A stretch of DNA of 64,000 bases from an uncultured Gemmatimonadales bacterium (GCA_963748035.1 CAVVHO010000004.1:477331-541330); one strand, 5' to 3'; positions 11,762 to 63,165 are shown, counted from the stretch's first letter. Numbers and translations: made by a program. Notes: generated by a model from the sequence alone, not told the origin.

Positions 11762-12188
11762 GGCGGTCCGACGGCCGAGGTTCTGTCATTGCGAGGCAAC
11801 GCTTGTCCCGAGCGAAGCGAGGACAAGCGGCCGAAGCAATCTTTGGTCGTGGCGCGCGATAGACCCATGACCCATGACCCACGACCCGTGACGCATGACC
11901 CACGACCCACGACTCACGACCCCCCGGTGTCACTTCAGTGACATCTGCCGAGCTGCGAGTCTCGCGGCATGCCGAGCTGGGCAAACGGCTCACCACGGAA
12001 ACACGGAAATCACGGGAACAAACACGGAACAGAGTTCCGTGCACTCTCCGTGCATTCCGTGCTTCCGTGGTGAATGGTTTAGGGAGTGAGGAGTAAGGAG
12101 TAAGGAGTGAGGAGTGGCCCGAAGGCGGCCTCATTCTGGGCCGCGGCTTCAGTCGCGACGGTGGCTCTATCCGTGTCCTCCGTGGTGA
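11762..12188. repeat. modular intergenic mosaic element (copy 1)
   Basis: Module order:
- CTGTCATTGCGAG..CGAAGCAATC (11783-11841)
- (CATGACCC/CACGACCC)n (11864-11921)
- palindrome GGTGTCACTTCAGTGACATC (11926-11945)
- long hairpin CACCACGGAAACACGGAAA...TTCCGTGCTTCCGTGGTG (11991-12072)
- (GAGGAGTR)n (12081-12116). Confidence 0.85.
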
Positions 12189-20890: not shown

Positions 20891-21045
20891 CAGACGGTCA
20901 GACGGTCCGACGGTCCGGCGGTCAAGGTTCGAGGTGCGGGTGACCCGTGACCCTGACTCATGACCCACGACTCATGACCCACGACCCATGACCCATGACC
21001 CATGACTCACGACCCCCCGGTGTCACTTCAGTGACATCAGCCGAG
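20889..21045. repeat. modular intergenic mosaic element (copy 2, short)
   Basis: (GACGGTCM)n at 20889-20920, (CATGACCC/CACGACYC)n at 20940-21014, and palindrome GGTGTCACTTCAGTGACATC at 21019-21038. Confidence 0.85.
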
Positions 21046-21081: not shown

Positions 21082-21909
21082 TCAGCCCACAACGGCCTTG
21101 GCGGCATCCTGTAGCTCATCGAGCGGGGTCCAGTACGGCTTGGGCTCGGGCCACTGAAATGGGCCACCCGCCAAACGATGCCGGAAGAAGCCAAGCGCGA
21201 GCCCGTGGAGCCGGCGGACCATGTCCGCATCGTCCGTGTGGAATGTGAGGTCCCGCAGGGTGATAAACCGCTTCACGGCCGCCGGGTTGATGTTGGCCTC
21301 GCGGCTCAGCAACCATTGCATGCAGACGGCGTATGCCTCGCTCTTGTCTCTGACTGTCCAAGGGCCGTGGTTGGGAACGAGGCCGCCGCAGGCGATGGCG
21401 GTGCTGAGGACGTCGGCCGAAAGCGCAGGGGCGCAGTCAGAAATGCGCCACTGGCCGGTCGCCTCGACGGTACCGCGGTACCGGTGGTTTCCGAACACGG
21501 TATTGGTGTCTGCCTTGGCGTCAGAGTCCCGTTTGACAATGCCCAGGTTGGCAGAGGCGAGTTCCACCGTCATCCCGGGCTGGGCGAGGGACGCCACTCC
21601 TGTTGCGAGCGGAAAGAGAGCAAAGGTGCTGGGTGCAATCCCATCGCCGGGAACCCCGACGAGGAGTCCGCCGGCCTCCGAGGGGGCAACATAAACGCCG
21701 GTGATTTTGGGTAGAAGCGACTTCTTCAGGGTAGTGCCGGGAGCGGTCAGCCGAAGCGACCAGTGGATGGAGAGATCACAAAACCAGGGGACGAGGGAGA
21801 GGCCGGCGAGTGCGTCGAGTGGTACAACGAGGGGACCGTCGGCAAGCGGCGTCAGTGGCACGGCGTCCATGACTTCGAAGACCCGTGCGGCGATCTCGGT
21901 CTTCTTCAT
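21082..21909 (-). CDS. hypothetical protein (275 aa)
   Basis: Intact ORF MKKTEIAARVFEVMD... with plausible composition. No motif recognised. Confidence 0.5.
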   Translation of the reverse strand: MKKTEIAARVFEVMDAVPLTPLADGPLVVPLDALAGLSLVPWFCDLSIHWSLRLTAPGTTLKKSLLPKITGVYVAPSEAGGLLVGVPGDGIAPSTFALFPLATGVASLAQPGMTVELASANLGIVKRDSDAKADTNTVFGNHRYRGTVEATGQWRISDCAPALSADVLSTAIACGGLVPNHGPWTVRDKSEAYAVCMQWLLSREANINPAAVKRFITLRDLTFHTDDADMVRRLHGLALGFFRHRLAGGPFQWPEPKPYWTPLDELQDAAKAVVG

Positions 21910-22048
21910 GTAGCGGGCCCTTGAGTAAGGAAGCCGGCTAACGTCCCCGCAAACGCCTCGGCTTTCGCACCCCAGAGGAGTGCTATGAACCGTAACCCAA
22001 ACTGTTGCACTTCAAACTTGAATTCTCAGTGAACCAACCGTGTCAGTG

Positions 22049-22459
22049 TCACGCCCAGTTGCCGAGAATGGCCCCCATCGCGGTGAGATAGACGAGCTGA
22101 TACCCGGCATCGATGAGGAAGGCGGCGAGCGGCTTGTCGGAGTAGAGATTAGCGGTGAATCCAATGGGCAACGCGAAGCCCACCCACGCGTGAAATCCCC
22201 AACCGGCACCGGCGCTCAGTGTAGTAGCGCCGAGCCGACTTAGAAAGAGATGAAGGATGTACGCAACGAGGATGAATGCGATGAAGGAGCCAAGATAGGC
22301 CTTCGCCGCATTCGCTTGCATCGCTGCCACCCTCTCTGGCGAATAGCCATTGGTGCGTACCCATGCCTTGGCGAAAAGGAGCGGCGAGTACCACAAGGCG
22401 CCGAGAAGCCAAGCGACGATGGCGGCAGCCAGGATGATGGGCCAGTGGCCAAACGACAT
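22049..22459 (-). CDS. DUF1761-family membrane protein
   Basis: Intact 136-aa ORF with four hydrophobic segments. LLGALWYSPLLFAKAWV matches my memory of DUF1761. Confidence 0.6.
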   Translation of the reverse strand: MSFGHWPIILAAAIVAWLLGALWYSPLLFAKAWVRTNGYSPERVAAMQANAAKAYLGSFIAFILVAYILHLFLSRLGATTLSAGAGWGFHAWVGFALPIGFTANLYSDKPLAAFLIDAGYQLVYLTAMGAILGNWA

Positions 22460-22502
22460 AAGAGGCTCAGGGATATGGTTGGCGGTATGAGGACGAGTAG
22501 CA

Positions 22503-22600
22503 ACCTAACATCCTGCGCTTGAGCTGCAACGCGCGGCTCGTGATGGTCGTCCTAAACTAAGCGTTGGGCCGCGCGTTGGCAGCTCAAGCGCCGGTTAGCC
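22503..22600 (-). repeat. attC-like site (98 bp) downstream of the DoxX cassette ORF
   Basis: The plus strand reads ACCTAAC...GTTAGCC. Arms GCGCTTGAGCTGC/GCAGCTCAAGCGC (13 bp) and AACGCGCGGC/GCCGCGCGTT (10 bp) pair perfectly. One bulged G on the plus strand lies in the arm next to DoxX. Confidence 0.7.
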
Positions 22601-22646
22601 AGCGTTGGTGTCGCAGCCAGTAAGGGCCTCTCGGTGCGCGCTCCGT

Positions 22647-23027
22647 CTAGGTGTGGCGTTGGAGGGCCAGGGTGGCGACGGACCCAGCCAAAACCAGCAG
22701 GGCCATGATGAAGAGGCTCGGATCGCCACCGTAGGTGATACCGATTTTGAAGACGTGGGTTGCGAGGGCCCCGGTCATGAGCCCGACGCCGAGGAGAGCG
22801 CCGAACCGTGTGCTACGGGGCCAGAGGAGGAGGCCCGCCGTAACCAACTCGACCATTCCAAGGAGGACCCTGCCCCAAGGCTCAACCCCGAGCAGAGTGA
22901 AGAGGGCCACGGCGTCCGCCGCCCCCGTCAGCTTTGTGAAACTGGCCATTGAGAGGATCGCGGCTGGCACGACTCGCGCGATCCAGATGAGGGCGACACG
23001 GCTCTTGGAGTCAGTTTGAGCTGTCAT
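22647..23027 (-). CDS. DoxX-family membrane protein
   Basis: Intact 126-aa ORF. ...AAILSMASFTKLTGAADAVALFTLLGVEPWGRVLLGMVELVTAGLLLWPRS...GALATHV has a DoxX-like topology and motif. Confidence 0.7.
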   Translation of the reverse strand: MTAQTDSKSRVALIWIARVVPAAILSMASFTKLTGAADAVALFTLLGVEPWGRVLLGMVELVTAGLLLWPRSTRFGALLGVGLMTGALATHVFKIGITYGGDPSLFIMALLVLAGSVATLALQRHT

Positions 23028-23158
23028 GGCTGCTTGGAGAAAGAGGTAACAGTCAACGATGCAGGGAGGTAACAGTCAACGATGCAGGCAGGTCTGTGGA
23101 TCTCCGACACCCTGCGCTGGAGCGACGACCGGTGTAGGGCGCCGAGTCGTGAAACGCT

Positions 23159-23234
23159 GGCTAACGTACGATTGGACCTGCCTCAAATGTACCGCCAAGA
23201 CAACCTATTACCATCTCACTGCGACTTGTCAGAC
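23159..23234 (-). repeat. short attC-like site (degenerate)
   Basis: The minus strand reads GTCTGAC...GTTAGCC. Its central 45 bp (GGACCTGCCTCAAATGTACCGCCAAGACAA...) recurs at 28410-28455. Arm pairing is only partial. Confidence 0.4.
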
Positions 23235-23745
23235 GGTCAGAGGGGCGGACGGTCCGAGGGTCAAGGTTCTGTCATTGCGGCAGCGCTTGCCCCGAGCGAG
23301 CGAGGGCACGCGCCGAAGCAATCTTTGCTCGGGAGCCCATTGCGCCCCCGATCTCCAACGTACCGTCGTAGGGGCGACCCAACGGGTCGCCCGTTTCAAC
23401 GATAAGCAACGGTGGTTGTGGCGACCCGCGCCAACCCATCTTGGCTGGGTAAACTTCTCACCACGGAAACACGGAAATCACGGAAACAACCACGGAACAG
23501 TTCCGTGCACTCTCCGTGCCTTCCGTGTTTCCGTGGTGAATGGTTGATGTGCTGGCGCGCCGGCACGTCGCTAAAGCGACCGCGAGAGGACGGTCCGACG
23601 GTCCGACGGTCCGACGGTCCGACGGTCAAGGTTCGAGGGGCGCAGGTGACCCACGACCCACGACTCATGACCCACGACCCATGACCCACGACCCGCGACT
23701 ACGACCCCCCGGTGTCACTTCAGTGACATCAGCCCTGCCGGCGGA
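23228..23745. repeat. modular intergenic mosaic element (copy 3), lying between the monooxygenase stop and its attC-like site
   Basis: Module order:
- (GACGGTC)n (23228-23258)
- CTGTCATTGCGG..CGAAGCAATC (23269-23323)
- REP1 CGTAGGGGCGACCCAACGGGTCGCCC (23367-23392)
- long CACCACGGAAACACGG hairpin (23459-23541)
- (GACGGTCC)n (23589-23628)
- (CATGACCC)n (23646-23706)
- palindrome (23711-23730). Confidence 0.85.
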
Positions 23746-24959
23746 CTAGACGGTCAGTACAACCGAGGTAACCCCGTGCTGGAACGCCTCCAGCCGCTTG
23801 CCCATCATCCGCTTGATGAGTCCGGTCTGGACGAGCAGAGGCAAGAGGCGCATCGCCCAGCGGCTGAGCATGGTTGGCTGGAGGAACAGGCGGGCTTGCC
23901 GATCCTGGTGTTCCTGGATGGCCGCGATCTCCGGGAGGCGTTCTGCGGCAACCCGTTGAGCGGCTATGTCCAGAGATGGAAGGCTGCCCCCACCCAACAG
24001 AGCCGGACAGAGGTGATTCGCCGCGACGATCGCGTCGCGCAGCGCCAGGTTGAGCCCTTGCCCGCCAATGGGAGACATCGGGTGCGCGGCATCGCCGAGC
24101 AGCAACTGCCCGGGTGCAGTCCACGAATCCAGGCGGCCAACCATCACATCGAGGAGTACAGTCTTCCGGAGGGCGTGGTAGTGGTCGCGAACGTGCGCGG
24201 CGAGGTCGGGGGACAGCCGGTCGATCAGTTGATCGACCCAATGCTCCGGATCGACGCGGCGCAGCTCGGGCAAGCTGCCCTTCGCGATGGTGAAGCCGGT
24301 CTGAAGGTCGCCGTCGCTCGCGGGGATGCCGCCGCTCAGAAACCCCGCGCCGAGTTCGATGCGGGCGGTTGTCGGGTCGGGCCAGAAGGCGGGAAAGGGG
24401 AGTTTGAGCCACACAATGTCGAACACCTGGCGCAAGGCGGTCTCCGGGAAGTGACCCGCCTTGCGGGTCATCGAGTAGCGTCCATCGGTACCGACAATCA
24501 GGTCCGCCCTGAACTCGACCGGACCGCCGGGCGCGTCGGCGCGCACCCCGACGACGCGACCCTGGTCAAACAGGAGGGCCCGGACCGCCGTCCCCATGTG
24601 GAGCTGGAACGTCGGCGAGCGGCCGGCCTGGTCGGTGAGCAGCCGCAGCAGCGCGGGTTGCGCGACGAATCGACCGGCGAAACCGAGCCGGTCGGTTGAG
24701 ACGCGAGCCCGGAGCCGGTGGCCCCAATACAGCTCAATAGCGCGGACGGCGACCTGCGGCAGCCCGGCGACCGCTTCGGCGAGCCCCATTTGCGCGAGGG
24801 CGTCTAGGCCGCTCTGTTGCAGCCCCTCACCCCGAAAGCTGCGGTCGAAGTCGCAGTGCCGCTCCAGCAGGGTAGTTGTGATGCCGCGCCGCGCCAGCAG
24901 GTACGCCAGCGCGGCACCCGCGGGTCCCGCGCCGACGATGAGGACCGAGCCTGGGGCAT
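23746..24959 (-). CDS. FAD-dependent monooxygenase (UbiH/PHBH-type)
   Basis: The in-frame upstream extension of track ORF 23746..24789 reads SVLIVGAGPAGAALAYLLARRGITTTLLER (GxGxxG). Later motifs are LIVGTDGRYS and LLLGDAAHPMSPIGGQGLNLALRDA. The only ATG (24959) is one base out of frame, so there is an N-terminal indel or an unrecognised start. Confidence 0.8.
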
Positions 24960-24993
24960 GAGGGATAGGTGGGGTGAGGGGAGAAGGGCTGCG

Positions 24994-25119
24994 GGCTGAC
25001 GCCGCGCTTAAGCGGCAGGGACGCAGCGAGATCGCTTCAGTATGCGGTGAGACGGCTGGTGGTGCCAGTCCTACACCAACCGACGGCCGTGCCCTGTCAA
25101 CTTCATGCGGTTGTCAGAC
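24994..25119 (-). repeat. attC-like site (126 bp, degenerate left arm)
   Basis: The plus strand reads GGCTGAC...GTCAGAC. The right arm and centre (GGTGGTGCCAG.CCTACAC..CCG..GGCCG.GCCCTGTCAACTTCATGCGGTTG) belong to the same family as 25922-26048. The left arm pairs poorly. Confidence 0.5.
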
Positions 25120-25921
25120 GGCAATCACTTAGCCGGAATGCTGAGCTCACCGACAATCGTGCTGACGTGAGGCAGGAGGAGTTCACAAAACCGGCGAGCT
25201 TCTGAGTACAGCTGGGTCATGGAATCTTGTAGATGTTTCAGGGTCACTACCGGCACTAACGCTTGGTGGTGCTCAATATCTCCTGGGACGGCAGCGAGCA
25301 GGTAGTCGACTTCCCTTAGTTCAGGCCCCGCGGGGACAGACTGTAGAGCATCAGCTGGCCGTGAAACACGACGAGTGGAAGCATTACGGCTGCAGAGGGG
25401 TGAGTTGGGGAGGAGAGACGGCTTGTGGTTGCACGCGCCTTATCCAGGCTGCGCACCGCGGAGCATGCCTGCATCATCGCAGGTATGGCGCAGGCCGGCG
25501 TTGTGAACGGGCGTGGCATCCGCGGCAAGGGCCTGGCGAGCCCAGCCCACTCTTGGCGCGACCTCATGTCGGATGTAAGCGCGGGAAGATGGCATGAACG
25601 TTCCACATTAGCATCGGGCTACTGCCATAGTGCGCCACTGTCTCTGACAGGCAAGTAGCCGTTCTGTCAACTCGCCTCCAGAGTGAGACCCAAGGTATCG
25701 GCTGGACTTGCAGCTCAACAGGAAAGCCTACCGTATGGCCCGCCGGTGGGCAGTAACAGGCAAGAACATTAGTCGCTGGATGGGCAGTTTGTGGTCTGTC
25801 GCTGTAGCGAGCCCCCCACCCGCCCTCGCGCACGTCCAGCGCAGCGTCGAGGGGATAGCCCGTCTATCGAGCCATTCAAGACTGTGGATCCTTGAACGGT
25901 GCCATCCTATAGTGATTGCCG

Positions 25922-26048
25922 GCCTAACGCCCCGCATAAGTTGCAGGGCCGCGGCGCGTTCGCTTCAGTATGGGGGACACCGACAGGTGGTGCCAGCCCC
26001 TACACAACCCGATGGCCGCGCCCTGTCAACTTCATGCGGTTGTTAGAC
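25922..26048 (-). repeat. attC-like site (127 bp)
   Basis: The plus strand reads GCCTAAC GCCCCGCATAAGTTGCAGGGCCGCGGC ... GCCGCGCCCTGTCAACTTCATGCGGT TGTTAGAC. The ends match RYYYAAC and GTTRRRY. The long imperfect stem has two unpaired bases, both in the right arm, and an inner CACC GACA GGTG hairpin. Confidence 0.7.
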
Positions 26049-26530
26049 CACGTAACGACGTGGGTTCACTGAGACGTGGCGTCTGGCATCCGCCGTAAAT
26101 CGATGACCGCTGGTTACGTTACGACTTCAATCGGTCGCCTGAGGGATGAGTGAAGTCACGCCGTTCACGACGTCCGGCTGGCTTATGAGCGCCGGACAAT
26201 CGTGACAGGCAGCTTCGATAGTGGGAATCCCAGTGCGTCGGGTCGTAGTTCGACCTGATTGTGATCCTTGCGACAGTGGTCTGTGCCTCGGCTACCCCAA
26301 GCCAGTGCACGGCCGGGTTGGCATAGACTGGTGGCGCTGAGCGCGCAGTCCACGCCATACGAGCTGTGCCACTGATGCTTGGTCCTGAAGGAGGGAATCG
26401 AGGGCTCCCGGCCAGATGATAGGGTGTACGATCGGCTCAGCGATGCAGCGTGCCGGGGCACTGATACACATAGCGTCATTGACTAGCTGGGCAGCCCGAA
26501 CGAGCGATGGAGTCTACCTCAGGAAAACCT

Positions 26531-26657
26531 GTCTAACGCCCCGCATAAGTTGCAGGGCCGCGGCGCGTTCACTGCAGTATGGGGGGGCACGGCAGGTGGT
26601 GCCAGCCCCTACACAAACCGTTGGCCGCGCCCTGCCAACTTCATGCGGTTGTTAGCT
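26531..26657 (-). repeat. attC-like site (127 bp), about 90 % identical to 25922-26048
   Basis: The plus strand reads GTCTAAC...GTTAGCT. The stop codon of the HEPN ORF (TAA, 26652-26654) lies inside the terminal AGCTAAC on the minus strand. Confidence 0.7.
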
Positions 26658-27288
26658 GGCATCAACCCAAGACTTGGCCAGTCTCTCCGGCGCACTGAGA
26701 AAGGCTGTACAATAGAGCTCAAGGCGTCGCTGTACGGGAGACTGGCGAAACTCGTGACGAAGGAACGCGCCAGGCGATTGCTTATTGCGGGGCAATGAAG
26801 CTACACCTGGAACCCTTACCCTGTAGATGCTGTACGCGGAATCACTAGAATGCGCAATAACATTGCGGATATGAACAGTCGCTGACTAAAGGTTCGGTTG
26901 TAGGGCTTATCCCCACGACTGGGCCGCCCTTCTTCAAGAAGAGCTCAATGAGCGAGCTTCCTTCCTCGCGGGGGTTAACCGGATGTAATCCGCGTCCGGG
27001 TGTCGCAGAATCTTCTCAAGGCGCGATCGCGAAGGAACGCGAGTAGGGGGTCTTCTTGCCAGCGAGGCGGGACCTCCCGCAGACTTCCGCGTACCCGGAT
27101 TCTTCCAGAAAGGCTTCCCACGGTGTTAGGATAGAGAGAAAGCCTGAGGAGTAGACAAACTCCACGTCTGTTACTAGTAGACGGTTAGCCTGAAGTTCAT
27201 CTTCAACACGGTTGCAGGTCTTAAGAACTTTGCGAACATACGCATCGAATGCCGCTTGCTCTCTAGCAAGTGGGCGAAGTCGTGGCAT
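26652..27288 (-). pseudogene. HEPN-domain protein (R-x4-H), at least three frameshifts in this sequence
   Basis: Track ORF 27016..27288 (MPRLRPLAREQAAFDAYVRKVL...FLSILTPWEAFLEES) continues in other frames as SRSRLEKILRHPDADYIRLTP..., then TVHIRNVIAHSSDSAYSIYRVRVPGVASLPRNKQSPGAFLRHEFRQSPVQRRLELYCTAFLSAPERLAKSWVDAS*. RNVIAH is a HEPN-type Rx4H motif. Confidence 0.5.
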
Positions 27289-27315
27289 ATCAAGCGCCCT
27301 TTAAGCCTAATCTCT

Positions 27316-28359
27316 TCAACAAGTAGTCGTGCCTGGTTCGGTGACGGCCGGGTCACTCGTCGCCGTTCTCCATTGCATCCTGAATCTTCTCAGGAGGGTT
27401 CTGCCAGGTAATGTCTGCGCTTGCTTACGCAGCTTGTCGGCCAGTCCTGAGGGCAGGGCCTGCGCTGGACGCTTCTTTAATGCGCTCTGCAGGCCGTACA
27501 TATGATCGTATGAAGTGACCCAGAGAGAGAAAGAAGCAGCAGGACGCTTGAACGCTGAAGTCGGAAGCAAGGGGCAGATCGAAGCTTCGATGGCACCCAT
27601 CACTTTCGTGAACCGATCCTCTAGAATCCGTTCCGATCGCAGCTCATCGTCATAGGTCTTGTAGTATTGCGTGATCTTCGATTGTGTCTTTCCTTTGAGT
27701 CCCTCGATCATGGCGATCAAGAATTCGGAGGTTGCCTCAACCTCGTCCATCCGCGAGATGGAATCGTTGGTAAAGACCTGCCATCCCCTCCATTGGTCCA
27801 AGTATTGGAAGGCAAGTTCATATGACAGCGATGCAAAGGCTCCGTGGAATTCCGAATTGCGGATCTCTTGCTTGTTGAGTGACAAGCCCGTCGAATTCAA
27901 TCGAGCAAAAATACGAAAAACCAGCTCGTCGCCTGCCGAAGCCGGAAGCACGTGCGTGCTGAATTCATAGTCAAGGATGCACTGCTTGTCGTCTGAGGAG
28001 AGCTTCTCAAACGGCTTTCCTGCCAACTCGGCGTTGTGAGTCTTGCGGACGACTACTCCGTCACGAGCTTCGTCGTAGTCGTCGAGGGCCGAGGAATCTA
28101 GATATGAAATCAGAGTGCGAAGCCTCTGTTGGCCGTCGACGACTTCCATCCTGGACTTTAGGGTCTCAGGAGATGTAGTTGCGCAGCAGAAAGCGGGATG
28201 GGATTTCCACGATGAATGCTGTCGATCGGCCGAATCGCGCTGGAGCTTTCCAGGTACGAGGCCGAGGAGGAAAATAGGATTCAGCCCAGGGCTGCACTGC
28301 GCGTGCCACTCAAGGCACAGGCGGCGGTGAAGACGGTTTCGTGACTTGATGGATGCCAT
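27316..28359 (-). CDS. DUF262 (ParB-like nuclease, DGQQR motif) protein; frameshifted near both ends
   Basis: Track ORF with MEVVDGQQRLRTLISYL. N-terminal DUF262 elements appear in other frames (RPRTWK; SSSAIRPIDSIHRGNPIP; FLLRNYIS). The likely true C-terminus, ADITWQNPPEKIQDAMENGDE*, is in a shifted frame ending near 27355. No DUF1524/HNH tail is present. Confidence 0.7.
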   Translation of the reverse strand: MASIKSRNRLHRRLCLEWHAQCSPGLNPIFLLGLVPGKLQRDSADRQHSSWKSHPAFCCATTSPETLKSRMEVVDGQQRLRTLISYLDSSALDDYDEARDGVVVRKTHNAELAGKPFEKLSSDDKQCILDYEFSTHVLPASAGDELVFRIFARLNSTGLSLNKQEIRNSEFHGAFASLSYELAFQYLDQWRGWQVFTNDSISRMDEVEATSEFLIAMIEGLKGKTQSKITQYYKTYDDELRSERILEDRFTKVMGAIEASICPLLPTSAFKRPAASFSLWVTSYDHMYGLQSALKKRPAQALPSGLADKLRKQAQTLPGRTLLRRFRMQWRTATSDPAVTEPGTTTC

Positions 28360-28384
28360 GGGTGCTAAGGGTGGTTGTCAGGTC

Positions 28385-28475
28385 GCCCGGAGCTGATCGC
28401 CCGCATAACTTACAATTGGACCTGCCTCAAATCTACCGCCAAGACAAACTATTACTATCTCCCTGCATACCAAGC
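28385..28475 (-). repeat. attC-like remnant at the right edge of the array
   Basis: The minus strand ends ...GGTCCAATTGTAAGTTATGCGGGC GATCAGC, resembling the L'-R' half of the 127-bp sites. The centre is shared with 23159-23234. No convincing R'' box is present. Confidence 0.3.
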
Positions 28476-28479
28476 GGCC

Positions 28480-29100
28480 TAATCCGACCGACCGACGCGA
28501 GCGAGATTGCGCGGGGAGCGGCAGAACGCGGGGGGAGGACGTGGGGGGGAGAGGAAGGCGGGGTAGCGGACGGGGCGGACGAAGCGGACCAAGCGCCTTG
28601 CGGCCCCGACCTCCAACGTACCGTCGTAGGGGCGACCCAACGGGTCGCCCGTTTCAACGATAAGAAACGGTGGTTTTGGCGACCCGTGCCAACCCGTCTT
28701 GGCTGGGTAAACTTCTCACCACGGAAACACGGAAATCACGGAAACAACCACGGAACAGTTCCGTGCACTCTCCGTGTCTTCCGTGCTTCCGTGGTGAATG
28801 TTTTAGCAGTGAGGAGTGAGGAGTAAGGAGTGAGGAGTAAGGAGTAAGGAGTGAGGAGTGAGGAGTGAGGAGTAGGGAGTAGGGAGTAGGGAGTAACGAG
28901 GGGCCCGAGGGCGCTCCCCATTCTGGCCGAGTGTCCCTTCAGTGACATCAGCCGCGGACGGCGCGGAAATAAAGGGATTGCTTCGTCGGTCGCTGCGCTC
29001 CCTCCTCGCAATGACAGCTGTCCGCCTGTCGCCCCGTCCGCCCCGTCCGCCTGTCCGCCCGTCCGCCCTGTCCGCCCCTTCCGCCCCGCCCCCCGGGAAC
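28480..29100. repeat. modular intergenic mosaic element (copy 4, largest)
   Basis: Module order:
- G-rich GGCGGACG-type array (28515-28590)
- REP1 (28625-28650)
- long CACCACGGAAACACGG hairpin (28717-28799)
- (GAGGAGTR/GGGAGTA)n (28808-28905)
- palindrome variant GTGTCCCTTCAGTGACATC (28931-28949)
- inverted GATTGCTTCG..CTCGCAATGACAG module (28977-29017)
- (CCGTCCGCC)n (29019-29090), complementary to the first array. Confidence 0.85.
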
Positions 29101-29143
29101 CTCCTGCCGCCTCCGGCGTTAAGGCAGGCAGGAGGAAATACCC

Positions 29144-40640: not shown

Positions 40641-40808
40641 CGTGGGTCGAGTGTCATGGGTCGTGGGACATGGGTCATGACTTATGGACCTCAGACTCAT
40701 GACCCAAGTCCCATGACCCACGTCCCATGACCCACGACTCATGACCCACGTCCCATGACCCATAACCCACGACCCATGACCCTCGACCCATGACGCACGA
40801 CCCACGAC
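40641..40808. repeat. octamer-array hairpin (GTGGGTCG/CATGGGTC)n ... (CATGACCC/CACGACCC)n
   Basis: Left arm at 40641-40680 and right arm (about 13 units) at 40697-40808. The element starts 22 bp after the sigma-factor stop. Confidence 0.9.
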
Positions 40809-60472: not shown

Positions 60473-60614
60473 CAGGGACTGCCGGACTGATTGAGTGCAC
60501 TCGCACAAGTCCGGGCGATCAGCGGGCTGCACACGGAGCGGCCCTGCAGATTGACGGCACGTGCACCGTGCCATTGACACGTCGCACCGTGCACGCTCCT
60601 GTTATAGTCGTCGG

Positions 60615-61935
60615 ATGTCTTCGGTCATGGTGCACCCGGCCCCGCGGGTGCGGGGCCGCGTGCGGCCGCCGGGCGACAAGTCCATCTCTCACCGCTACGC
60701 GCCTGCTGGCCGCCATCGCCGACGGCGTCTCGACGATCCACGGCTACTCCACCGGCGCCGACTGCGCCTCCACGCTTCGCTGCCTGCGCGGCCTCGGCGT
60801 CGCGAATCGACGAAATCGGCCGGGATCCGGCGCTCGGGCATCGAGCATCCGGATCGAGGGCCGCGGCCTCCGCGGGCTGCGTCGCGCCCGCCGCGACGCT
60901 CGACGCCGGCAATTCCGGCAGCACGATGCGGATGCTCGCCGGGATCCTCGCCGCGCACCCGTTCCGCGACCTCGATCACCGGCGACGACTCGCTGCAGCG
61001 GCGCCCGATGCGCCGGATCATCGTCCCGCTCGAGCGCATGGGCGCGCGCGATCGCCTCCTCCGACGGCCGGCCGCCGCTGACCATCGAGGGCACCCGCGC
61101 GCTGGCGGCCATCGACTTCGAGCCCGAGGTGCCCAGCGCGCAGGTCAAGAGCGCGGTGCTGCTGGCCGGTCTCCACGCGGACGGCGTCACGCGGGTCCTC
61201 GAGCCGCTGCCCACGCGGGATCATACGGAGCGCGCGCTGGACGCGTTCGGCGTGCCGGTCGACGCGTGTCGGGCCAGCGTCGTCGGCCATCGAGGGCGGC
61301 CAGCGCCTGACCGGGCGCGACGCTCGACGTGCCGGGCGACATCTCGTCGGCGGCGTTCTGGATGGTGGCCGCCGCGGCGCTGCCCGGTTCGGAGGTCACC
61401 ATCGAGCACGTGGGCCTCAATCCCACCCGCGCGGCGGGCATCCTCGACATCCTTCGCCGGCATGGGCGCGAGCGTCGAGGTCACCCCGCGGCGGCGCCGT
61501 CACCGGCCGGCGAGCCGATCGGCACGATCGTCGTCCGCCACGACGCGCTCTGTCGAGCGCCGACATCGCCCGGACGAAGTGCCCGGCGTCATCGACGAGC
61601 TGCCGGTGCTGGCGGCGCTGGCCACGCACGGCGGCGAGCTGCGCGTGAGCGGGGCGCAGGAGCTGCGCGTCAAGGAGAGCGACCGCATCTCGGCGCTGGC
61701 CGACGGATTCCGGCGCATGGGCGCCGACATCGACGAGCAGCCGGACGGCTTTCACGTCCGCGGCGGCCGCCGGCTGCGGGGCGGCGAGGTGGACGCGCAC
61801 AACGATCATCGCCTGGCCATGGCGTTCGCGATCGCGGCGCTCGGCGCCTCGGGACCGACGACGATTCACGACGCCGGCGCGGCGGCGGTGTCGTATCCCG
61901 AGTTCTTTTCCGTGCTCGAGTCGCTGCGCGCGTGA
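60615..61935 (+). CDS. aroA: 3-phosphoshikimate 1-carboxyvinyltransferase (at least five frameshifts here)
   Basis: ATG at 60615. [14 protein letters not shown] | [33 protein letters not shown] ... [24 protein letters not shown] ... [18 protein letters not shown]...TRDHTERAL ... [26 protein letters not shown] ... [23 protein letters not shown]...[13 protein letters not shown]. Confidence 0.85.
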
Positions 61936-62427
61936 GGGCCGACAAGCTCTATCTGGTCGGATTCATGGGCGCCGGCAAGACCACCGTCGCGCGCGCGCTG
62001 GGCCGGCGGCTCGGCTGGCGCGTCGAGGACATCGACGAGCGCATCGAGGCGCGCGAGCGCCGCAGCGTCGTCGGCCATCTTCGCCCGCGAGGGCGAGCCG
62101 TACTTCCGGCAGGTCGAGCGGCGGTGCTGCAGGAGCTGCTGCCCGAGCGGAACATCGTGGTCGCCACCGGCGGCGGCACGTTCGTCGATCCGGACAATCG
62201 CGCCGTGATGCTGACCGACGGCGCCGTGGCCTGGCTCGACATTCCGCTGGCGCGCGTCATCGATCGCGTGCCGCCGACGGCCGCCGGCCGCTGGCCGCGG
62301 ATCGCGAGCAGATGGAGCAGCTGTACGAGCGCCGCCGGGTCGCCTACGCCAGGCGCACATGCGCATCGACGCGAGCAGACCGGTCGACGAAATCGTCGAA
62401 CGCCTGCTGGAGTGGATCGGCTACTGA
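61932..62427 (+). CDS. aroK: shikimate kinase (at least two frameshifts here)
   Basis: GTG at 61932 overlaps the aroA stop (GTGA). [39 protein letters not shown]... | [13 protein letters not shown] ... [16 protein letters not shown] ... [12 protein letters not shown]. Confidence 0.8.
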
Positions 62428-62428
62428 T

Positions 62429-63165
62429 GTGAGCTATCTCATCATCAGCGACATCCACGCCAATCTCGAGGCGCTCGAGGCGACGCTGGCGGCGGCCGGC
62501 CCGTACGATCGCGCGCTCGTGCTCGGCGATCTCGTCGGCTACGGCGCCGACCCGAACGCCGTCATCGATCGCGTGCGCGCGCTCCCCGGCGCCGTCATCA
62601 TCCGCGGCAATCACGACAAGGTCGGCGCGGGGCTCGAGGACGTCGAGGGCTTCAACCACCTGGCCCGGCACGCGATCGAGTGGACCGCCGCCGCGCTGAC
62701 CCCCGACAACCGCGACTGGCTCGCGGCGCTGCCGCAGGGCCCGGTGATCATCGACGACGCCGTCGAGATCTGCCACGGCACGCCGTTCGACGAGGACGTC
62801 TACGTCTTCGACGACCTCGACGCGCTGCGCGCGCTCCGGGCGGCGCGGCGGCCGCTCTGCCTGTTCGGCCACACGCACGTGCCGGCGGTCTTCAGGCTGG
62901 GCACGAATGCCGAGCTCTCGATGATGCCTCCCACCGCGCGTCTCGCCGTTCGATCTGCCGCTCGACCAGGGACGCCACCTGATCAACGGCGGCGCCGTCG
63001 GCCAGCCGCGCGACGGCGACTCCGCGCGCGGCATTCGGCTTCTTCGACACCGAGACGCGCACAGTGACGCTGATGCGCGCCACGTACGACGTCGCGGCCG
63101 CGCAGGCCAAGATCATTGCGGCCGGCTGCCCGAGGTGCTCGCGCAGCGGCTGGCGCTCGGACGGT
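62429..63165 (+). CDS. metallophosphoesterase (YfcE/MPP family; frameshifted at the 3' end, end approximate)
   Basis: GTG at 62429. [18 protein letters not shown]...[15 protein letters not shown]...IRGNHD...ICHGTP...CLFGHTHVP, then shifted frames read [14 protein letters not shown] and [32 protein letters not shown]. Confidence 0.75.

Follow-up and report, generated by a model that had tools for sequence, protein, structure and literature searches.

What separates the unrelated genes between positions 21936 and 28475 of a 64,000-nt stretch of an uncultured Gemmatimonadales bacterium (GCA_963748035.1, CAVVHO010000004.1:477331-541330; this whole stretch is hereafter the window)? Imperfect palindromes lie between these genes, and a sequence-only reading had taken the locus for an integrase-less array of integron gene cassettes with six attC-like recombination sites. 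We consider it very probable that the 6.5-kb stretch is an integron gene-cassette cluster without a nearby integrase, that is, a cluster of attC sites lacking an integron integrase (CALIN; the definition is that of Cury et al. 2016, IntegronFinder, PMC4889954), set in a GC-rich chromosome. The observations on which that reading had been staked beforehand all came out in its favour: significant covariance-model matches were obtained, the palindromes do not form a dispersed repeat family, and related sites delimit open reading frames (ORFs) in other genomes. The window array is a real but ordinary case of a known element type, and the current view of integrons is unchanged by it.

Architecture of the attC sites in the window

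Candidate sites were folded as single-stranded DNA, each strand being compared with shuffled sequences (z-scores are quoted as plus/minus strand), and were searched with R1, a covariance model made from ten sites. Three of the four window sites recognised by R1 are in its training alignment, leaving only the match at 22498-22605 independent. The sites and remnants along the array are the following.

21936..22048, plus strand: terminal attC of the DUF1761 cassette, decayed; by sequence reading nothing beyond the left (R'/L') arm GGCTAACGTCCCCGCAAAC can be recognised
22503..22600, plus strand (the bottom strand): attC of the DoxX cassette, ACCTAAC...GTTAGCC; fold z -5.6/-6.9
23153..23165, plus strand: R' half-site AACGCTGGCTAAC, upstream boundary of the DoxX cassette
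24994..25119, plus strand: degenerate copy of the 127-nt attC, GGCTGAC...GTCAGAC; R1 122 bits
25922..26048, plus strand: attC of the 127-nt type, GCCTAAC...GTTAGAC; R1 155.6 bits (own training sequence), fold z -3.2/-3.9
26531..26657, plus strand: attC of the 127-nt type, both bulged bases being C, GTCTAAC...GTTAGCT; R1 156.5 bits (own training sequence), fold z -4.3/-2.7
28391..28416, plus strand: probable attC left-arm remnant GAGCTGATCGCCCGCATAACTT, which agrees with the left arm of the family in 14 of 19 positions; no R1 match

R1 matched exactly four sites, all on the plus strand of the window, with E-values of 4e-40, 8e-40, 9e-31 and 4e-11, and returned no other match even with filters off; the independent match at 22498-22605 scored 49.8 bits (E 4e-11 to 3e-12). 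The three hairpins, whose folding is much stronger than that of shuffled sequences, and the degenerate relative at 24994-25119 that had been proposed from the sequence are thereby retained as four family members, but the other two proposed sites, 23159-23234 and 28385-28475, are not: their folding z-scores are +1.0 to +2.0, R1 does not match them, and they represent the left module of a mosaic repeat described below. Both nevertheless still begin with genuine attC left-arm remnants. The two 127-nt copies at 25922-26048 and 26531-26657, estimated earlier to be about 90% identical, share 91% identity over 128 nt, and the right-arm 17-mer is present in three window copies against 0.08 expected, all of them inside 4.2 kb.

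Folding bore out the earlier placement of the unpaired single bases on the ORF-proximal (3') arm, as read on the plus strand. The stem of 22503-22600 consists of 13 bp, a bulged G on the 3' arm and then 11-13 bp. In 25922-26048 the R box is followed by an internal loop of 2-3 nt, by two 6-bp segments, the first with a bulged C and the second with a bulged T after it, and by a stem. On the top (minus) strand the R boxes agree closely with RYYYAAC/GTTRRRY, at 7/7 and 7/7 positions in 25922-26048 (GTCTAAC...GTTAGGC), 6/7 and 7/7 in 26531-26657 (AGCTAAC...GTTAGAC) and 6/7 and 7/7 in 22503-22600 (GGCTAAC...GTTAGGT). Folding has been lost at 24994-25119, which carries about nine non-pairs (z -0.8/-1.2), and the terminal remnant at 21936-22048 neither folds significantly (z -0.5/+0.06) nor matches R1. 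The half-site at 23153-23165 is complementary at 13 of 13 positions to GTTAGCCAGCGTT, the right flank (22594-22606) of the 22503-22600 site.

The four R1 sites start at 22498, 24989, 25917 and 26526, with a largest gap of 2.4 kb. Like other CALINs (PMC4889954), the array comprises two or more attC sites on a single strand, spaced by less than 4 kb and not accompanied by a neighbouring intI; it is likewise small (four recognisable sites), and its cassettes have functions that are unknown or unrelated to resistance. It differs in having been called with a family-specific model in place of that of IntegronFinder, and in being unusually decayed, two of its sites being cut by a host mosaic repeat. 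Each unit would once have been a circular cassette comprising a promoterless minus-strand ORF followed by an attC. The plus strand would be the recombinogenic bottom strand and would fold, as single-stranded DNA, to a hairpin with the plan R box (RYYYAAC/GTTRRRY), small internal loop, 6 bp, extrahelical base, 6-7 bp, second extrahelical base and stem, both extrahelical bases lying on the 3' arm. An integron integrase would cut the left box between A and C, joining cassettes head to tail.

The site family beyond the window and its integrase

Further copies of the 127-bp site, which the sequence-only reading had proposed to look for, do exist elsewhere. The right-arm 20-mer was scanned against one genome per species, giving eight loci (seven in Gemmatimonadales metagenome-assembled genomes (MAGs) and one in a MAG labelled Gammaproteobacteria), and against the Joint Genome Institute (JGI) metagenomes, giving 20 contigs; a viral contig scan and a plasmid BLAST with the site yielded no matches. 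The whole 127-nt site is kept at 85-95% in Gemmatimonadales MAGs and soil metagenomes. Within these loci R1 uncovered many more divergent sites, lying on one strand and 0.45-1.0 kb apart, with CTAAC and GTTAG conserved family-wide; two of the loci (L013 and L020) hold ten sites each within 6.5 kb, and one MAG holds at least two separate family arrays (L004/L030 and L006/L029). That the sites delimit ORFs in related genomes is evident from 55 of the 58 inter-site intervals, in which the longest ORF is opposite to the R1 strand (mean coverage 78%) with the site at the ORF 3' end.

The position of the crossover was approached by comparing the nine bases that follow GTTA in one site with the nine bases, reverse-complemented, that precede TAAC in the next. 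Neighbouring flanks matched at a mean of 6.8 of 9 positions, and at 7 or more of 9 in 40 of 58 pairs, compared with 4.2-4.35 for the controls (own left flank, wrong-direction neighbour and random pairs; Mann-Whitney p 1e-11 to 1e-20). This complementarity arises because A/C cleavage in the left box leaves each unit with both halves of its own R box. When 106 family sites were folded with the R box constrained, the common fold was an R box, a small internal loop, 6 bp, a single bulge, 6-7 bp, a second bulge and a stem, with single-base bulges numbering 164 on the 3' arm and 40 on the 5' arm. The two bulges are 6 bp apart in 45 of the sites and 7 bp apart in 12. The bulge geometry is that of a canonical attC bottom strand, as checked against the aadA attC of a class 1 integron (L035), whereas the identity of the bases is unlike the canonical G and T, the second bulged base being variable across the family. 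The architecture of the sites, the organisation of the arrays and the boundaries of the cassettes are, we conclude, established by these comparisons.

Is the family associated with an integrase? In agreement with the earlier claim, searches of the 64-kb window with phmmer (IntI1 and XerC as queries) and with tblastn (the integrase described below as query) revealed no tyrosine recombinase; the window belongs to a 554-kb contig and covers 21 kb on one side of the array and 35 kb on the other. A weak tblastn match at 61573-61683 falls within 5-enolpyruvylshikimate-3-phosphate (EPSP) synthase and was rejected as an integrase. The first 28 related loci likewise yielded no tyrosine recombinase, and a homologue search with IntI1, whose query sequence is 100% identical to a database cluster, gave IntI1-like proteins only and no Gemmatimonadales integrase. 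We then walked along MAG contigs by means of cassette proteins from a mixed-profile search. The arrays continue past the ends of the L030 stretch and of the L031 contig, and in L029 the end of the array was reached with no integrase there. A near-identical homologue (P0124) of a hydrolase cassette of L030 led to L033, a metagenome-assembled contig in which the gene at 1965-2939 is a full-length TIGR02249 integron integrase (415.5 bits against a cutoff of 265), 53% identical to IntI1 over 314 gapless residues that include the IntI-specific segment. Nine R1 sites follow this intI, and the ninth, at 143.5 bits, is of the window's 127-nt type.

The link of the site family to intI elsewhere and the absence of intI from the window are thus both established, the former by a single instance. 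Six other integrase-proximal ends have no intI, namely those of the window, L005, L007, the locus shared by L012, L021 and L025, L029, and L002, which is interrupted by an insertion sequence (IS). In L033, intI and the cassette ORFs share one orientation, and about 75 nt separate the end of intI from the first cassette gene, as in integrons with an inverted integrase (for example in Treponema; PMC4889954), a likeness that concerns the L033 integron and not the window, which has no intI. The locus shared by three soil samples (L012 8313-8332, L021 5812-5831 and L025 1463-1482) presents a 127-nt-type right arm only, fused to the apparent end of a small membrane-protein ORF.

The family model also recognises class 1 sites. 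Applied to the class 1 integron L035, R1 found three of its five attC sites at E values of 0.01 or less (1e-8, 7e-4 and 0.01), on the correct strand and in the expected intergenic places, with nothing else ranking higher. The family also shares several properties with sedentary chromosomal arrays such as those formed by the Vibrio cholerae repeats (about 120-130 nt): a long (about 127 nt), highly conserved attC repeated along the array, one small ORF per unit, and a bottom strand whose extrahelical bases lie on the 3' arm. It departs from them in its sequence and host lineage (Gemmatimonadales MAGs), in having C as the first extrahelical base, and in that the family type is common to many species-level MAGs and soils at 85-95% identity.

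No pool of mobile small genes known from soil is larger than that of integron cassettes, and to our knowledge the hosts of most soil cassettes are unknown. The 127-nt attC type and the wider family can now be linked both with Gemmatimonadales MAGs and with a genuine integron integrase gene, and therefore the 127-nt type could be a taxon marker for cassettes in soil metagenomes. Reviews include Gemmatimonadota among the integron-bearing phyla (PMC8618304). We found no description of this attC family in the open literature, and the detail at the level of the family appears to be undescribed; the type of element is itself known.

Cassette content and the state of the array

All recognisable genes of the window array are on the minus strand, and only the DUF1761 and DoxX genes are intact. 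The units have the cassette-like sizes that had been read from the sequence (about 0.57, 0.66, 1.84, 0.93, 0.61 and 1.85 kb), and the drop in GC content noted there is also present, from a window mean of about 66%, which holds elsewhere, to 53-61% at 25-29 kb.

22049..22459, minus strand: DUF1761 ORF, 136 aa (Pfam PF08570, E 9.8e-28); the cassette starts at the G|TTAGG crossover, 22508
22647..23027, minus strand: DoxX-like ORF, 126 aa (Pfam DoxX_2, E 1.6e-7)
23746..24959, minus strand: FAD-dependent monooxygenase gene (Pfam FAD_binding_3, E 2.6e-22)
25120..25921, minus strand: cassette-sized unit with no credible ORF (longest 96 aa, 35% of the unit; no Pfam match, no gene on record)
26049..26530, minus strand: cassette-sized unit with no credible ORF (longest 98 aa, 57% of the unit; no Pfam match, no gene on record)
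26652..28377, minus strand: DUF262/GmrSD_N pseudogene (Pfam GmrSD_N, E 2.1e-14, on 27316-28359)

The DUF1761 cassette offers a second view of the crossover. Relatives of its protein at 90% amino acid identity or more are encoded on several soil contigs (L036-L040), where the cassette lies in long arrays, flanked by R1 sites and beside different neighbours. Nucleotide homology between the window and one of these contigs (L037) opens with ten identical bases, GTTAGGTTGC (window 22508-22499); identity is 39% upstream of this boundary and 87% over the ORF, and fades past the stop codon. The breakpoint coincides exactly with the G|TTAGG crossover point. At the position of the remnant at 21936-22048 the homologous cassette in L037 still has an intact site. 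Going by this sequence comparison, the DUF1761 cassette may be counted as a sign that a window cassette has been mobile. The DoxX-like protein has one relative at 90% identity or more, on another contig. When the window cassette ORFs were compared with the collected related loci by tblastn and tblastx, only the attC sites themselves matched.

Several gene calls of the sequence-only reading did not survive. The two orphan units contain no credible ORF, and the HEPN ORF has no support from Pfam, which returned no HEPN match in the DUF262 region. The stop codon TAA within the terminal TAAC of an attC is real (26652-26654, within the R'' box); it ends not a HEPN ORF but the final fragment of the DUF262 pseudogene, in which a frame map shows two in-frame stops and at least two frame changes. 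Another Gemmatimonadales MAG carries a GmrSD_N (DUF262) cassette with a 127-nt-type attC (L031 3062-4274), which has no similarity by tblastn to the window pseudogene. By frame analysis, the ATG of the FAD monooxygenase gene and the Rossmann motif lie in frames that differ by one base, with the shift at a run of four C. Outside the array, aroA (EPSP synthase, 60568-62432) occupies two overlapping frames, the second running on into shikimate kinase, as the result of a frameshift or an assembly indel; because aroA also appears frameshifted, some of the frameshifts in the window may be assembly errors. Directly upstream of the DoxX start codon, at 23043-23088, a 23-nt unit, GAGGTAACAGTCAACGATGCAGG, is perfectly duplicated in tandem.

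Several points weigh against interpreting the stretch as a cassette array. An intact ORF is present in only two of the six units. The FAD gene is unproven as a cassette, having a host-like GC content of 69% and no attC right arm. The 22503-22600 site has one bulge only. The first bulged base of the family is C in 76 of 90 sites and not the canonical G, and the family shows that the extrahelical base closest to the R box can be C instead of G. Finally, Rfam has no attC family: a scan at its gathering and E-value thresholds gave no relevant family, only microRNA-like chance matches far below the cut-off.

We infer that the cassettes were inserted by an integrase that has since been lost or is encoded elsewhere in the genome. 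The array now appears to be decaying: of its attC sites, one is degenerate, one has all but disappeared and two are cut by the mosaic repeat, and the cargo includes a pseudogene and two units that do not code. The array would in that case illustrate how such clusters fall apart: the integrase disappears or lies far away, attC sites wear down or are broken up by host repeats, and cargo turns into pseudogenes. A possible, if somewhat unlikely, alternative is that the array is a live satellite of a complete integron elsewhere in the same genome, its cassettes being excised and reinserted in trans. Intact R boxes and bulges in the three foldable sites are compatible with this, multiple arrays per genome do occur, as in the MAG with L004/L030 and L006/L029, and about half of CALINs are in IntI-encoding replicons according to Cury et al. 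(PMC4889954), a share that speaks for such a satellite. It is opposed by the extent of the decay, with one attC unfoldable, two truncated by repeats and the terminal one nearly gone, by the in-frame stops of the DUF262 gene and the two units without ORFs, and by the failure to find an integrase within 21 kb on one side and 35 kb on the other.

The mosaic repeat and elements that interrupt attC sites

The repeat that cuts two of the sites is present in two copies.

23166..23739, plus strand: mosaic repeat copy A, defined by alignment with copy B and by module searches; it sits at the expected attC of the FAD unit
28406..28953, plus strand: mosaic repeat copy B, defined by alignment with copy A

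This repeat of about 570 bp opens with a left module of 61 nt and continues with a G-rich stretch that varies, a core of 212 nt bearing the hairpin CACGGAAAC, 7-8-nt tandem repeats, which include (GACCCAY)n, (GACGGTCC)n and (GGAGTRA)n, and the terminal hairpin GGTGTCACTTCAGTGACATCAGCC. Partial copies lie at 11862-12072, 20955-21042 and 40729-40777, and the tandem-repeat-plus-hairpin module directly follows the 3' ends of two ORFs, 21082-21909 and 23746-24789; in about 330 kb of related loci no mosaic module turned up. The 61-nt module (23162-23222 and 28406-28466) is non-palindromic, its copies are 90% identical, and it is confined to places at which the left arm of an attC breaks off.

This distribution bears on whether the locus is one array or two. 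Two short arrays (21936-23165 and 24994-28416) might each be headed by a 61-nt attI-like junction or by the end of an attC-targeting element, with the FAD gene a host gene between them, an arrangement that we regard as unlikely. The restriction of the 61-nt module to the two points at which an attC left arm breaks off would suit it, as would the host-like GC content of the FAD region (69%) and the occurrence of the same tandem-repeat-plus-hairpin module after the FAD gene and after the host ORF at 21082-21909. However, the module is unlike both the L033 sequence that separates intI from the first cassette and the approximately 330 kb of related loci; the junction at copy B keeps about 20 nt of the attC left arm, a better match to an attC that has been interrupted than to an attI; and with only two module copies the association could be due to chance.

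Still more doubtful, in our estimation, is the proposal that the mosaic element with its 61-nt head is a non-autonomous mobile element inserting specifically into folded attC sites, or a portable attI-like junction. If this were true, integron arrays would have in the mosaic element a parasite or remodeller of a new kind, one that splits them and silences cassettes. Known elements that insert into attC are the IS1111-attC group of the IS110 family and the group IIC-attC introns. The present observations are alike in that family attC sites are interrupted by IS110- and IS3-family elements in L001, L002, L029 and L030 and that the window repeat element sits inside two attC sites; they are unlike in that the window element of about 570 bp is protein-less and built of host repeat modules, its targeting of attC being putative.

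That the palindromes are merely repetitive extragenic palindromic (REP)-like or miniature inverted-repeat transposable element (MITE)-like host repeats, or transcription terminators between genes, unrelated to integrons, is extremely improbable: the window does hold other hairpin-bearing host repeat families and the first extrahelical base is not the canonical G, but in 64 kb there are zero copies outside the single-strand cluster of 4.2 kb, the sites of the tandem arrays elsewhere keep strictly to one strand and each unit has one ORF, the complementary flanks of neighbouring sites expose a crossover point, and the family adjoins a TIGR02249 integrase and is modelled by an R1 that cross-recognises class 1 attC sites.

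Apart from the cassette array itself, several repeats and insertions were noted. Copy B of the mosaic repeat is flanked by (GGAGTRA)n and (CCGYCCGY)n tracts at 28805-28900 and 29018-29104, and the G-rich tract at 28557-28589 is partly complementary to the C-rich tract at 29030-29093. In L033, the stop codon of intI is immediately followed, at 2940-2985, by ACGACCCACGACCC...GGGTGTCAC, which resembles the heptamer-repeat-plus-hairpin module of the window and is too short to judge. ISs within family arrays were seen at L001 3372-3400, L002 39-1310 and 1944-3320, L029 7248-8282 and L030 5332-6511, and comprise an IS3-like end abutting half an attC, an element with helix-turn-helix (HTH) and rve domains, and IS110-family transposases. 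In L030 the IS110-family gene adjoins a truncated site, which recalls the attC-targeting IS1111 group, and in L035 a group II intron (954-2858; RVT_1, GIIM) interrupts the aadA attC at ...GAATTGT|GTACGCC.

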